DNA from: a virus
Strand: one strand, 5' to 3'
DNA: 11,429 nt
Virus genome (UHGV): UHGV-1560016
The translations under genes were made by a program, and so were the position numbers. Within the stretch, counting starts at the first letter, position 1; the number at the start of each line of letters is the position of its first letter. Below, piece by piece: positions 1 to 1,704 of this stretch. The notes under the pieces are model-generated. The model had not been told where the DNA came from. It saw only the letters and a list, made by a program, of their open reading frames with translations, and searched no databases.

Positions 1-1
1 T

Positions 2-238
2 GATGAAAAAGAACTTGATAATGCAATTAATAAAATCATCGTAACGTCGCTCTTTTCCTGTCTCAGCGACACTCAGCAAAAACAGTTCTACGAATCGGCT
101 TTCAACATGATCGAGCGTTGTTGTTTCTGCGATGCCGACGAGTTACCTGAAAAAATCAGGAAACAGTTGGCTGATGCTCTTCGAGTGCGACTTTCTGACC
201 AATTTTCTGAAATGTACTCTCCGAATTTGGACAAATAG
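2..238 (+). CDS. Hypothetical protein, 3' part only (5' end lies outside the window); reads ...NMIERCCFCDADELPEKIRKQLADALRVRLSDQFSEMYSPNLDK*
   Basis: Hand translation of frame 2 is open from the window edge to TAG at 236-238. It is absent from the ORF track, presumably because it is 5'-truncated with no long M-initiated stretch. It lies in AT-rich DNA and overlaps the antisense ORF 156-431 by 83 nt, so only one of the two may be real. Confidence 0.3.
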   Translation, partial: DEKELDNAINKIIVTSLFSCLSDTQQKQFYESAFNMIERCCFCDADELPEKIRKQLADALRVRLSDQFSEMYSPNLDK

Positions 239-431
239 AAAAAGGCCATTTCCATTCAGGGTCTGATGGAAATACTTCAGCCTGTTCCAAAGCACGGCGT
301 AAAGAGAACACAACTCCAGCCATAATCTGATGTTTCCCATTGGTCCAGCTATCGCCGCTCTGATCTACAGGGGCGGCTATGTCGTATGACCAAACGACTT
401 CACAGTTATTGTTTAAAATCTGGACTTTCAT
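156..431 (-). CDS. Hypothetical small protein (about 91 aa from the ATG at 431; the ORF track extends it to 473)
   Basis: ATG at 431-429 (minus) is preceded by AGGTG with a 6-nt spacing. It sits downstream of the leftward promoter at 558-585. No family recognised. Overlaps the + strand partial ORF at its 3' end and contains the inverted repeat 248-273. Confidence 0.4.
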   Translation of the reverse strand: MKVQILNNNCEVVWSYDIAAPVDQSGDSWTNGKHQIMAGVVFSLRRALEQAEVFPSDPEWKWPFSICPNSESTFQKIGQKVALEEHQPTVS

Positions 432-557
432 TTCATACACCTGCTTTAACATGAGTGCCTGGTGGCACAACATGACTCAACGAATCATCCTGGACTTCAT
501 ATGCCCCAGGCGGCTACTTCGTGGGCGTCCTGCCTGTTCGTTGTTTCGCTTGGGTAC

Positions 558-585
558 ATTATGTATCTCAAAGGTACATTGTCAA
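558..585 (-). promoter_or_regulatory. Candidate sigma70 promoter directing leftward transcription (PL-like): -35 TTGACA, 16-nt spacer, -10 CATAAT, overlapped by operator-like repeats
   Basis: Minus-strand TTGACA is the complement of 580-585 and CATAAT the complement of 558-563, with a 16-nt spacer (564-579). GGTACATT is directly repeated at 553-560 and 573-580. The palindrome TACAT-T-ATGTA at 555-565 overlaps the -10. Confidence 0.45.
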
Positions 586-586
586 G

Positions 587-613
587 TATAAAAAAACCTG
601 CCGAAGCAGGTTC
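587..613 (-). terminator. Intrinsic terminator of the repressor gene
   Basis: A 7-bp stem (595-601 AACCTGC pairing 606-612 GCAGGTT) with a 4-nt loop reads on the minus strand as stem, UUCG loop, stem, then a U-run (complement of the A-run at 590-596). It lies 11 nt downstream of the repressor stop at 625-627. Confidence 0.6.
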
Positions 614-624
614 ATAAACATTGA

Positions 625-1299
625 TTAGGCTTTGATTTTGTATCTTCTTGGTTTTCCTGAGAAAATCACTGTGCCAATTATAGAGCAATTACCGTTGATC
701 TTAATGTAAGGCTCAGGCCAGTTTGGGTTTAACGCTTTGAGATAACGCTGTGTCCCATCTTCTATCAACCTTTTGAAGGTGGTTTCGCCTGTATCGTGCA
801 TCAATGCAATAACGTCGTCACCGTGGCAGGCAGGTACTTCAGGATCGACAAAAATCATGTCTCCCGGGCGGTACTCATCAATCATTGAATCACCTATCAC
901 CCGCAAGATATAAGTCATTTCCCCACAGGGTACAGGGCAGGGATACGTTTCTGCTGTGCTCAAATCAACCTCAGAATATCCAACTTCTTTCCATGCTCCG
1001 GCCTGTACCCATGATATGACAGGGACTAATGTGATTTGTTTATTAGTGATTGAAACATCAGGTTTTTTTGTGATGTTCGTTGTCTGGTGTTCTTGATCGA
1101 GCCATCCGACAGGCAGGTCGAAACATTTTTCGATGTGTCGTGCCATGCTGTCACCGATATTTTTAGTAGCACCATCCCCCATAAACCTGCTGGTCTGGGT
1201 TGGCTCGCGATCAATCATAGTGGCAAAGGAAGAATTCCCGCCAACACCATCTCTCAGTTTTCTGGCGTTAGACCGCCGGATGTCATGGATTGTTTTCAT
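625..1299 (-). CDS. Phage CI/LexA-like repressor with C-terminal S24 autopeptidase domain (224 aa)
   Basis: The C-terminal half carries the S24 signature GDSM (IGDSMIDEY, nucleophile Ser) and a downstream KRL (TFKRLIEDG, general-base Lys), with LexA-like spacing. The N-terminal ~70 aa are basic and typical of a DNA-binding domain. It is divergent from a Cro-like gene and followed by its own terminator. The 224-aa size matches what I recall for e14 CohE (unverified). Confidence 0.88.
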   Translation of the reverse strand: MKTIHDIRRSNARKLRDGVGGNSSFATMIDREPTQTSRFMGDGATKNIGDSMARHIEKCFDLPVGWLDQEHQTTNITKKPDVSITNKQITLVPVISWVQAGAWKEVGYSEVDLSTAETYPCPVPCGEMTYILRVIGDSMIDEYRPGDMIFVDPEVPACHGDDVIALMHDTGETTFKRLIEDGTQRYLKALNPNWPEPYIKINGNCSIIGTVIFSGKPRRYKIKA

Positions 1300-1315
1300 A
1301 ACGAAATTAAAACCC

Positions 1316-1334
1316 TTGTACCGTTAAGGTACAA
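1316..1334. promoter_or_regulatory. Operator candidate: perfect 7-5-7 inverted repeat TTGTACC-GTTAA-GGTACAA
   Basis: The arms 1316-1322 and 1328-1334 are exact reverse complements. It lies 17 bp upstream of the repressor start codon in the divergent intergenic region. Confidence 0.5.
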
Positions 1335-1339
1335 GTATC

Positions 1340-1367
1340 TTGAAGGTTCATTTCAATCATGTAATAT
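1340..1367 (+). promoter_or_regulatory. Candidate rightward promoter (PR-like) for the Cro-like gene: -35 TTGAAG, 16-nt spacer, -10 TAATAT
   Basis: TTGAAG at 1340-1345 and TAATAT at 1362-1367 with a 16-nt spacer. GGAGG RBS at 1375-1379 and ATG at 1390. Confidence 0.45.
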
Positions 1368-1387
1368 GTACACCGGAGGTACATATT
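1363..1387. promoter_or_regulatory. Operator candidate: 9-7-9 perfect inverted repeat AATATGTAC-ACCGGAG-GTACATATT overlapping the -10 and RBS of the Cro-like gene
   Basis: The arms 1363-1371 and 1379-1387 are exact reverse complements (checked base by base). It shares the GTACA core with the repeats at 553-580 and 1316-1334. Confidence 0.55.
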
Positions 1388-1389
1388 GT

Positions 1390-1704
1390 ATGAAAGCGTA
1401 TTGGGACTCTTTAACCAAAGAACAGCAGGGCGAGTTGGCCGGAAAAGTTGGCTCAACACCTGGCTACTTACGGCTGGTTTTCAATGGCTATAAAAAAGCC
1501 AGTTTTGTGCTGGCTAAAAAACTTGAGCAATGCACGTCAGGTGCAATTACGAAATCTGACTTAAGACCGGATACCCGCCAGCAGGATGATCTGAACAGTC
1601 TGGATGAACTGCAAACGCTGGCGATTGATGTTGATTATCTCGAGCCCGGTAACGGGCCTGACGGCGATATCGAACATCACACCGAAATAACCCTTCCTTC
1701 CTGA
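1390..1704 (+). CDS. Cro/YdaS-like helix-turn-helix regulator (104 aa) with an acidic C-terminal extension
   Basis: ATG at 1390 with GGAGG 10 nt upstream. The N-terminal segment LAGKVGSTPGYLRLVFNGYKKASFVLAKKLEQCTSG resembles phage Cro/YdaS-type HTH proteins. It is divergent from the repressor. The longer track ORF 1087-1704 overlaps the repressor antisense and is not the true start. Confidence 0.7.
   Translation: MKAYWDSLTKEQQGELAGKVGSTPGYLRLVFNGYKKASFVLAKKLEQCTSGAITKSDLRPDTRQQDDLNSLDELQTLAIDVDYLEPGNGPDGDIEHHTEITLPS

Follow-up and report, generated by a model that had tools for sequence, protein, structure and literature searches.

Two inverted repeats between cI and cro as probable copies of one 17-bp operator in a lambdoid immunity region of the e14/SfV group

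We analysed an 11,429-nucleotide stretch of the viral genome UHGV-1560016 (hereafter the window), in which a cI-type repressor gene and a gene derived from cro are divergently arranged on either side of an intergenic gap of 90 bp.

625-1299, minus strand: cI-type repressor gene (ymfK/cohE of e14; cI of SfV and SfIV), 224 aa.
1390-1704, plus strand: cro-derived gene, delimited by homology breakpoints and by protein and DNA comparison with SfIV.

The cI product has an N-terminal HTH domain and an S24 autocleavage domain (Pfam Peptidase_S24, E = 1.5e-26, residues 93-212), and its C-terminal domain matches the structures of lambda CI (1.9e-9), UmuD and LexA. Its translation contains the cleavage motif VQA100-G101, S138 in GDSM and K176 in FKRL, and the whole protein is 100% identical to that of E. 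coli loci. The N-terminal domain had no Pfam HTH match at E < 0.01 and matched the SPC32H Rep structure 5d50 only weakly (E = 0.0018). Cro is an HTH protein of the YdaS family, with a weak match to Pfam YdaS_toxin (5.7e-4, below the curated cut-off) and weak matches to the solved Cro structures 8co2 and 8c7k. The ATG of cro is located at 1390, not at 1391. Codons 1 to 61 of the 66-aa Cro (ymfT/croE) are joined in frame to the final 43 codons of a tail terminator gene (homologue of SfIV_09) at about 1556-1573, with replacement of the last five cro codons, and the fused gene is named 'phage tail terminator protein' by PGAP.

The prophage is decayed here, and the deletion by which cro became fused to the tail terminator gene places Mu-like tail genes directly downstream of the cro promoter, PR. 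The tail module found there looks complete and of the Mu contractile type, with sheath, tube, chaperone, tape measure and baseplate genes. The same arrangement of truncated cro and tail genes recurs in 16 independent metagenome contigs and at two chromosomal sites. The junction was absent from IMG/VR (searched with an exact 44-mer) and from 5426 complete E. coli genomes.

The region from 1290 to 1400 is 100% identical to the ymfK(cohE)-ymfT(croE) intergenic region of e14 in K-12 MG1655, and is present in 1326 of the 5426 complete E. coli genomes, about a quarter of them, K-12 included. Positions 1316-1384 correspond to a 'putative operator region' in the GenBank entry of SfV (U82619.2, 26377-26445), and positions 500-1573 are 98-99% identical to SfV and SfIV, the cI and Cro of SfIV being described in the SfIV paper as 100% identical to those of SfV. 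With near-identical cI, operators and cro (except for the last five cro codons), this element would have the same immunity specificity as the e14/SfV group. The switch was already known and its putative operator region already in GenBank; the 17-bp unit, a central weak site and the copies at OL were worked out here.

The original prediction had described two perfect inverted repeats in the gap, TTGTACC-GTTAA-GGTACAA at 1316-1334 (IR1) and AATATGTAC-ACCGGAG-GTACATATT at 1363-1387 (IR2), and direct reading of the sequence showed both to be present there with perfect arms. IR1 is a perfect 8-5-8 repeat, CTTGTACC-GTTAA-GGTACAAG (1315-1335), with one more base on each side than in the 7-5-7 form given earlier, while IR2 can be extended imperfectly to arms of 15 nt with 87% complementarity (1357-1393). 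The GTAC cores start at 1318 and 1329 in IR1 and at 1368 and 1379 in IR2. Because the distance between the cores is 11 bp in both, IR1 and IR2 are, on sequence grounds, two copies of one 17-bp site, TGTAC-N7-GTACA, which is equivalent to the 6-5-6 repeat TGTACC-N5-GGTACA.

We compared this region with 16 homologous but diverged switches, drawn from some 15 genera of enterobacteria (Pseudocitrobacter, Klebsiella, Atlantibacter, Leclercia, Phytobacter, Enterobacter, Pantoea, Trabulsiella, Kluyvera, Limnobaculum, Rahnella, Edwardsiella and others), whose CI proteins are 73-88% identical. A scan of viral contigs returned only 100%-identical copies and added no diversity. The results of this comparison showed that both repeats are present, in register, in all 16 of the diverged homologues examined, so that the original prediction withstood its own test for their absence from homologous switch regions. 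The OR region of the 16 homologues aligns without gaps, with the highest information content in the arms and the lowest in the 5-nt centres; the arms and the distances from site to site are invariant, and the centres vary freely. The presumed recognition regions of both proteins (REPTQxSR in CI and GYLRL(V/I)F in Cro) are also conserved across the homologues, in agreement with the invariance of the half-sites. Because half-sites and presumed recognition helices of CI and Cro are all conserved in the 16 homologues, there is no protein-DNA covariation by which to identify the binder.

We then compared the window with shuffled sequences. Inverted repeats with arms of at least 7 nt and spacers of 3 to 8 nt gave 9 entries (7 distinct) in the window vs 4.7 per shuffle, and those with arms of at least 9 nt gave 2 vs 0.27 per shuffle. 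A single perfect short inverted repeat is therefore unremarkable in this window, and the excess over chance lies in the shared motif. TGTAC-N7-GTACA, with at most one mismatch, occurs three times in the 11.4 kb (562-578, 1317-1333 and 1367-1383) when 0.15 is expected; all three matches are inside the immunity region, and three copies were reached in 0 of 200 shuffles. When a weight matrix was built from homologues of other genera alone, these three sites had the top three scores of the window, 23.4, 23.6 and 21.8 bits, respectively; the best score in 100 shuffles was 15.8 bits. Sites of at least 8 bits numbered six vs 0.3 expected, all of them within 331-1383. Within the homologous loci (2-3.7 kb each), sites of at least 15 bits were found only at the operator positions, a result that is partly circular as the matrix was trained on those sites. 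GGTACA half-sites are also present inside cI, at 929-934 and at 1004-1009 (where GGTACA encodes W-V-Q of the CI cleavage motif); they are unpaired in the 17-bp geometry and were taken as coding coincidences.

The sites and promoters proposed for the gap between cI and cro (OR) are the following.

1317-1333, no strand: proposed operator A (OR3-like), TGTACC-GTTAA-GGTACA, the core of IR1; 23.6 bits.
1334-1350, no strand: proposed operator C (OR2-like, weak), AGTATC-TTGAA-GGTTCA; 9.4 bits in the window.
1367-1383, no strand: proposed operator B (OR1-like), TGTACA-CCGGA-GGTACA, the core of IR2; 21.8 bits.
1340-1367, plus strand: predicted PR, with a -35 TTGAAG (1340-1345), a 16-nt spacer and a -10 TAATAT (1362-1367).
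1306-1334, minus strand: candidate PRM, with a -35 TTGTAC (1334-1329), a 17-nt spacer and a -10 TTTAAT (1311-1306).

The repeats had been said to flank and overlap the promoter of cro, and the positions of the predicted PR hexamers and of the cro Shine-Dalgarno (GGAGG, 1375-1379, inside the spacer of IR2) agree with this. Within operator B lie the end of the PR -10, the start site predicted near 1374 and the Shine-Dalgarno. The predicted PR matches the consensus at 8 of 12 positions, which is below the threshold of our consensus scan, and the TTG of its -35 and the TAATAT are conserved in the homologues. Operator A overlaps the -35 and the spacer of the candidate PRM; its arms are invariant and its 5-nt centre varies freely among 17 distinct sequences. 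The distance from A to B is fixed at 50 bp in all homologues, and at the sixth position of the left arm the two sites show a consistent difference, with C in A and mostly A in B.

Operator C adjoins A, covers the -35 of PR and is centred at -43 from the cI ATG. Its right half, GGTTCA, is invariant in 17 of 17 distinct sequences, though it lies mostly within the PR spacer, while its left half is degenerate and reads AGTACC in most homologues. The score of C ranges from 10.7 to 12.3 bits in the closer homologues and is negative in the most diverged ones. We hold with moderate confidence that site C, as read from its sequence, is an operator; by itself it is not significant.

The -10 of the candidate PRM ends 6 nt ahead of the cI ATG, which implies a leaderless cI mRNA. 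A TAAT block is found 6 nt from the cI ATG in most homologues (7 nt in homologue L018; degenerate in L013), the bases between this block and the ATG vary, and a properly spaced Shine-Dalgarno is lacking. The candidate PRM matches the consensus at 8 of 12 positions, was not flagged by the scan and has a -10 without the usual A at position 2; for this last reason, both a leaderless cI message from this promoter and the activation geometry at -43 are proposed only tentatively.

A second group of sites was found beyond the other end of cI (OL).

562-578, no strand: proposed operator OL1, TGTATC-TCAAA-GGTACA, in the spacer of PL; one mismatch, 23.4 bits.
542-558, no strand: proposed operator OL2 (weak), TGTTTC-GCTTG-GGTACA; 12.0 bits.
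558-585, minus strand: PL, with a -35 TTGACA (585-580), a 16-nt spacer and a -10 CATAAT (563-558).
594-613, minus strand: intrinsic terminator of cI, an 8-bp stem followed by a T run.

PL reads leftward into the ORF at 156-473, matches the consensus at 11 of 12 positions, has both hexamers invariant in the homologues and coincides with bases annotated as 'promoter' in phage Ayreon (MF807953.1); the cI terminator is annotated as a putative rho-independent terminator in SfV and Ayreon. Among 19 distinct sequences the OL1 block, GGTACATTATGTA(C/T)C-N5-GGTACATTGTCAAG, does not vary outside its 5-nt centre, which is free, and the leftward flanks are unrelated; the pattern seen at OR is found here even amid unrelated flanking DNA. 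OL2, at a distance of 20 bp from OL1, lies over the start site predicted for PL, near 551; it was picked up a second time, independently, as a direct repeat of OL1 (19 nt, spacing 20). Its right half is near-invariant (AGTACA in L018) while its left half is present in some homologues only, with scores from -18.6 to +18.3. The weak halves of C and OL2 are lost in the most diverged homologues, and neither site is individually significant. Each of the strong sites is placed on a promoter core: OL1 overlaps that of PL, and B and A would overlap those of the predicted PR and the candidate PRM, respectively.

These results make it highly probable that the two repeats are two of the three strong copies, accompanied by two weak ones, of a single twofold-symmetric operator in the lambdoid immunity region of e14, SfV and SfIV. 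Several characters of a lambdoid switch are found at this locus: an S24 repressor gene divergent from a gene for a small HTH Cro, several intergenic operators of about 17 bp and a second set of operators at PL. The part of the original prediction that made the repeats operators of the cI/cro switch is thus very probably right as far as sequence can tell, while its suggestion of two binding modes or two proteins from the spacer lengths was not supported, and the central weak site and the copies at OL/PL had escaped it. By analogy, both CI and Cro likely use sites A and B; the assignment of a protein to a site, and any preference, would be purely by analogy with lambda, a scheme in which CI would prefer B and OL1, and Cro A. 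The literature describes cohE as coding for a CI-like repressor. We found no CohE or CroE binding experiment and no operator mapping in the searchable literature, which did not cover the primary SfV and e14 papers.

A CI dimer would sit on each 17-bp site, with one HTH on each GTAC half-site. When bound at B, CI would cover the -10, the start site and the ribosome-binding site of PR and turn off cro and the genes downstream. The weak site C, over the -35 of PR and at -43 of the divergent cI promoter, would probably be filled cooperatively, in a position that may match that of OR2, from which lambda CI activates PRM. Occupation of A, over the -35 and spacer of the cI promoter, would result in negative autoregulation by excess CI or in shut-off of cI by Cro, while OL1 and OL2 would occlude the strong leftward PL. 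DNA damage would lead to RecA-stimulated self-cleavage of CI at Ala100-Gly101 and free PR and PL, and Cro would then bind to the same sites.

The original prediction had taken the spacers of 5 and 7 nt to suggest two binding modes or two proteins, for example repressor and Cro; IR1 might then be a site for the repressor only and IR2 a site for Cro only. The perfect arms are indeed of unequal length, the centres are unequal in sequence, two DNA-binding proteins are encoded beside the sites, and the consistent A/B difference at left-arm position 6 could tune preference. We nevertheless find this reading unlikely, as the GTAC starts are the same 11 bp apart in both repeats and one weight matrix describes A, B and OL1. 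The spacers appear different because the flanks of IR2 happen to lengthen its palindrome outward and because its left-arm position 6 is an A and not a C. The left flank of IR2 is the PR -10 TAATAT, and its outer bases on the right are, like the others, not conserved in the homologues. The unequal centres of A and B would reflect other information encoded at these sites rather than different binding modes, the centre of B being constrained by the GGAG of the cro Shine-Dalgarno and not by another spacing.

Binding of the repeats by host LexA, by a regulator of another prophage or by a nucleoid protein is very unlikely. In favour of such a factor, the C-terminal domain of the repressor resembles that of LexA and e14 has SOS-inducible functions, but the literature places the e14 division inhibitor SfiC outside LexA control although it is SOS-inducible, and no LexA box (CTGT-N8-ACAG, at most one mismatch) was found within 500-1400. 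The sites, moreover, travel with the cI/cro pair across many genera and into unrelated flanks.

The repeats could also act as RNA hairpins, IR1 as a minus-strand terminator or attenuator upstream of cI and IR2 as a stem-loop controlling translation of the cro mRNA. The folding energy of each is -11.5 kcal/mol (IR1, z = -4.1; IR2, z = -2.2), the scan marked the minus strand of IR1 as terminator-like, and the stem of IR2 can be extended to 14 pairs, AUG included, so that the stem would hold the start codon and the loop the Shine-Dalgarno. Against this, what is conserved in the arms is their sequence, which is found at three promoters; at one of these, with OL1, the transcribed strand does not form a stable hairpin (-2.8 kcal/mol, z = -0.5). 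The homologues have kept neither the T run that follows IR1 nor the extended pairing of IR2, the latter because the distance from GGTACA to the ATG varies. With a predicted PR start at about 1374, inside IR2, only the 3' arm of this repeat would be transcribed, and an RNA with this 5' end is not unusually structured (z = +0.3). An Rfam search gave no family match, its sole match being insignificant (E = 0.44). We rejected the terminator and the translational hairpin on these grounds and give this explanation a very slim chance.

Chance palindromes without function, of which several perfect ones of 7-8 nt are expected in 11 kb, are effectively refuted by the enrichment of the motif, its overlap with promoters and its conservation across genera with free centres.

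A single operator present in several copies, the reading we prefer, provides an explicit model for the e14/SfV immunity group: TGTACC-N5-GGTACA, with three sites at OR and two at OL. The 'YmfT iModulon', which is SOS-inducible, and the division inhibitor of e14 could be easier to interpret with this model, which also eases the design of ChIP, EMSA and reporter assays on CohE and CroE. The finding is an ordinary one because GenBank already marks the putative operator region of e14/SfV; it matters little beyond housekeeping and does not challenge current ideas on lambdoid switches. That the CI/operator switch serves here as an SOS-triggered control of headless tails, an incipient tailocin, strikes us as highly improbable; with a truncated tail terminator, tail-like particles are not expected. 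A milder alternative is that the non-lambda spacing, in which a weak site directly adjoining A lies between two perfect ones at a distance of 50 bp from each other, could reflect another mode of cooperativity or looping.

Compared with known systems, the switch is lambda-like in its divergent cI (S24 autocleaving, with an HTH) and cro, in its partially symmetric 17-bp operators and in its three intergenic sites, of which the one nearest cro would lie over the predicted PR, the one nearest cI over the candidate cI promoter and the middle one upstream of the -35 of the latter. The middle site, C, spans -35 to -51 relative to the cI ATG, and OR2 of lambda lies at about -34 to -50. The probably leaderless cI message and the second set of operators, at a strong PL past the cI terminator, are lambda-like as well. 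Unlike in lambda, whose half-site is TATCAC and whose sites are separated by 6-7 bp, the half-site here is the unrelated TGTACC, and the gaps are 0 bp between A and C, which abut (17 bp centre to centre), and 16 bp between C and B (33 bp centre to centre); the rules of cooperativity may therefore differ. Further differences from lambda are that two sites rather than three are detectable at OL and that Cro belongs to the YdaS family of HTH proteins; no cII, cIII or N is reported from this phage group in the SfIV paper. The SOS box of LexA is comparable in being palindromic, in having a repressor of the S24 family and in its SOS-inducible outcome, but its spacing and half-site differ and CTGT-N8-ACAG is absent from the switch. 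The P22 c2 and 434 cI systems, whose operators bear no sequence resemblance to the sites described here, follow the same logic, with dimeric HTH repressors on symmetric sites of 14-18 bp at OR and OL.

The two inverted repeats were read directly in the sequence, and both are as originally predicted: TTGTACC-GTTAA-GGTACAA at 1316-1334 (IR1) and AATATGTAC-ACCGGAG-GTACATATT at 1363-1387 (IR2). IR1 is longer by one base on each side (a perfect 8-5-8 repeat, 1315-1335) and IR2 has an imperfect extension (15-nt arms with 87% complementarity, 1357-1393); the cro-like ORF (1390-1704) starts at the ATG at 1390. Inverted repeats with arms of at least 7 nt and spacers of 3-8 nt gave 9 entries (7 distinct) in the window versus 4.7 per shuffle, and those with arms of at least 9 nt numbered 2 versus 0.27 expected from shuffles. 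One short perfect palindrome would not stand out in 11.4 kb, and on palindrome counts alone the observation would be weak.

Comparison of the cores placed the GTAC starts of IR1 at 1318 and 1329 and those of IR2 at 1368 and 1379, 11 bp apart in each repeat; both repeats are therefore TGTAC-N7-GTACA (equivalent to 6-5-6 TGTACC-N5-GGTACA). With one mismatch allowed, this pattern matched three times in the window (562-578, 1317-1333 and 1367-1383) versus 0.15 expected, and none of 200 shuffles reached three matches. The window thus carries one conserved 17-bp symmetric motif in three strong copies, each over a promoter-like core, flanked by the genes for a CI-type S24 repressor and for Cro. The reading of the repeats as operators of a cI/cro switch is very probably right, while the shared core geometry excludes spacers of 5 and 7 nt as grounds for two binding modes or two proteins. 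The contrast in spacers arises because the palindromes extend outward to different lengths; in the alignment of homologues, the outer left part of the 9-nt arms of IR2 is the PR -10 (TAATAT) and the outer right part consists of non-conserved bases. CI and Cro likely differ in their preference among the sites. The GGTACA half-site has 7 of its 10 window copies within 553-1383. Two of these seven, inside the cI coding sequence (929-934 and 1004-1009) and unpaired in the 17-bp geometry, are probably coding coincidences, since the second encodes W-V-Q of the cleavage motif. The elements of the region are as follows.

542-558: putative operator OL2, TGTTTC-GCTTG-GGTACA, 20 bp from OL1
562-578: putative operator OL1
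585..558, leftward: near-consensus promoter PL, TTGACA-16-CATAAT, 11/12 consensus positions
594-613: cI terminator, preceding PL
625-1299, minus strand: CI-type repressor gene, 224 aa, Peptidase_S24 domain (Pfam)
1317-1333: putative operator, site A
1334..1329 (TTGTAC), 17-nt spacer, 1311..1306 (TTTAAT), minus strand: candidate cI promoter (PRM), ending 6 nt before the ATG
1334-1350: putative operator, site C, AGTATC-TTGAA-GGTTCA, directly adjoining A
1340-1345 (-35 TTGAAG), 16-nt spacer, 1362-1367 (-10 TAATAT): predicted PR, placed by eye
1367-1383: putative operator, site B

Sequence identity places 479-1573 as the immunity region of the e14/SfV group (E. coli prophage and Shigella phage): ymfK (LexA-family protein) and ymfT (YdaS-family HTH) of E. 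coli match it at 99-100% identity, and the cI and cro genes from Shigella phages SfV and SfIV, as well as from several coliphages, at 98-99%. Positions 1290-1400 match E. coli K-12 MG1655 at 100% identity, and 1326 of the 5426 complete genomes of E. coli contain them. The 'putative operator region' of SfV (GenBank U82619.2, 26377-26445) corresponds to 1316-1384, nearly the coordinates originally predicted. The feature had thus been annotated before, as the operator region of an immunity type that is very common among E. coli/Shigella prophages. The C-terminal domain of the repressor gave structure matches to lambda CI, UmuD and LexA, and its translation contains a lambda-like cleavage motif (VQA100-G101), Ser138 in GDSM and Lys176 in FKRL. 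Cro matched the YdaS family below Pfam's curated cut-off and gave weak matches to two solved 'Cro' structures. Homology to SfV/SfIV is lost left of about 479-500, a mosaic boundary (window 1-478), and the presumed first PL gene (ORF 156-473, minus strand) had no Pfam match.

The CI protein was then scanned against one genome per species, which gave 19 loci (CI 73-100% identical), including 16 diverged loci (CI 73-88% identical) in Pseudocitrobacter, Klebsiella, Atlantibacter, Leclercia, Phytobacter, Enterobacter, Pantoea, Trabulsiella, Kluyvera, Limnobaculum, Rahnella, Edwardsiella and other genera. The repeats were present in these homologous switches, with arms kept in the 16 diverged loci and no case of absence. 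The cI-cro intergenic alignment had zero gaps from site A to site B, and the distance between them was constant at 50 bp. Among 17 distinct sequences, the arms TGTACC/GGTACA had maximal information content and the five central bases of site A were free (GTTAA, TTAAA, TCAAA, TTGTT, TCTTG and others). The OL block GGTACATTATGTA(C/T)C-N5-GGTACATTGTCAAG was invariant with a free 5-nt centre in 19 distinct sequences, and was kept even when the DNA on its left was unrelated. A weight matrix was trained on the homologues only, leaving out the window and identical E. coli loci. Its top three hits in the window were the three strong sites (23.6, 23.4 and 21.8 bits), versus a maximum of 15.8 bits in 100 shuffles; six window sites reached at least 8 bits versus 0.3 expected, all within 331-1383. 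Scores of at least 15 bits fell at these positions only in every homologous locus, a result with some circularity, since those very sites had served to train the matrix. Protein-DNA covariation was uninformative because recognition helices and half-sites were both conserved in all homologues, and a scan of viral contigs returned identical copies only.

This conservation also bears on whether the repeats act as RNA hairpins. IR1 was flagged terminator-like, and IR1 and IR2 each fold at -11.5 kcal/mol. However, homologues keep neither the T run nor the extended stem of IR2, and it is as sequence that the arms are conserved; on the transcribed strand the motif at PL does not fold, RNA begun at the predicted PR start would hold only the 3' arm of IR2, and no Rfam family matched. 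That the sites are LexA targets is opposed by the lack of an SOS box within 500-1400.

As putative operators, the sites are placed relative to the promoters as follows. OL1 is inside the spacer of PL, whose bases carry the annotation 'promoter' in phage Ayreon. On the predicted PR, with a start near 1374 and a Shine-Dalgarno GGAGG at 1375-1379, B would span about -7 to +10 and C about -40 to -24. On the candidate PRM, A would lie at -18 to -34 and C at -35 to -51, which is where lambda OR2 lies relative to PRM. PR and PRM are predictions that match only 8/12 consensus positions each and fell below the scan threshold, and the candidate PRM -10 is without A at position 2. This PRM ends 6 nt before the ATG, and the cI message therefore appears leaderless. 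The TAAT block is 6 nt from the cI ATG in most homologues (7 nt in homologous locus L018, degenerate in L013), the bases between the two vary, and no properly spaced Shine-Dalgarno was found for cI in the window or the homologues.

Site C is, with moderate confidence, a probable weak operator. Its right half, GGTTCA, is invariant in 17/17 sequences and lies mostly inside the PR spacer, and promoter function places little constraint on a spacer. Most homologues have AGTACC as the left half, and site C scores 9.4 bits in the window, 10.7-12.3 in closer homologues and below zero in the most diverged ones. OL2 was picked up independently by the repeat finder as a 19-nt direct repeat; one half (GGTACA) is near-invariant (AGTACA in L018) and the other variable. 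In homologous locus L011 a further complete site, TGTACC-AAGTT-GGTTCG, lies left of the OL block, about 20 bp past OL2, a hint of a third OL operator in some relatives.

Downstream, the match to the immunity region runs to 1573, and the match to the Mu-like tail module of SfIV/SfV begins at 1556. Codon 61 (of 66) of cro continues in frame into the final 43 codons of the homologue of SfIV_09, a tail terminator per PGAP (fusion within 1556-1704), with the join (about 1556-1573) at patchy microhomology CTGAC..AAGAC..GATA. The deletion takes out all replication, late-control, lysis and head genes and leaves the tail module directly downstream of PR, which would now read straight into tail genes. 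The identical 104-aa fusion protein was found on 16 metagenome or SRA contigs, some adjoining proA with flanks 100% identical to E. coli and others in an e14-like element adjoining icd; the junction was absent from 5426 complete E. coli genomes and, as an exact 44-mer, from IMG/VR. The window is 99.99% identical to contig L029. Relative to L026, L028, L030 and SfIV, it has a 5-nt deletion (GGTCA) after 1739 which frameshifts the DUF2635 gene (ATG 1713) after about 9 codons, so that no more than an ORF beginning with TTG (1717-1875) is left; the cause is either further decay or a mistake in the assembly of the metagenome contig. The truncated tail terminator, the frameshifted DUF2635 gene and the lack of lysis genes in view look like prophage decay rather than a working tailocin. 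L030, L031 and L032, which lie next to icd, carry the same fusion and DUF2635 gene in an e14-type element (icd, integrase with arm-binding domain, Exc); a larger deletion follows there, directly beyond which come genes for tail-fibre assembly, an invertase gene and an HNH (mcrA-like) gene. The pattern suggests either transfer of the junction from one prophage to another by recombination or a series of successive deletions.

No experimental operator mapping for the e14/SfV immunity group was found in the literature searched, the primary SfV/e14 papers lying outside it. By analogy with lambda, CI dimers on B, cooperatively with C, would shut PR and stimulate PRM; site A would serve negative autoregulation or be the preferred site of Cro for shutting off cI; OL1 and OL2 would shut PL, and RecA-stimulated CI cleavage would lead to induction. 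Literature on e14 agrees with this proposed switch: cohE is described as coding for a repressor like CI, and the division inhibitor of e14 can be induced by SOS without being under LexA control. The e14 'YmfT iModulon' is reported to respond to oxidative stress. The switch differs from that of lambda in its half-site sequence, in its spacing (A adjoins C, their centres 17 bp apart, with 33 bp from C to B) and in showing just two detectable sites at OL; a further difference is that cII, cIII and N are reported in the SfIV paper to be absent from this phage group. The candidate cI message would resemble the message from lambda PRM, which is also leaderless.
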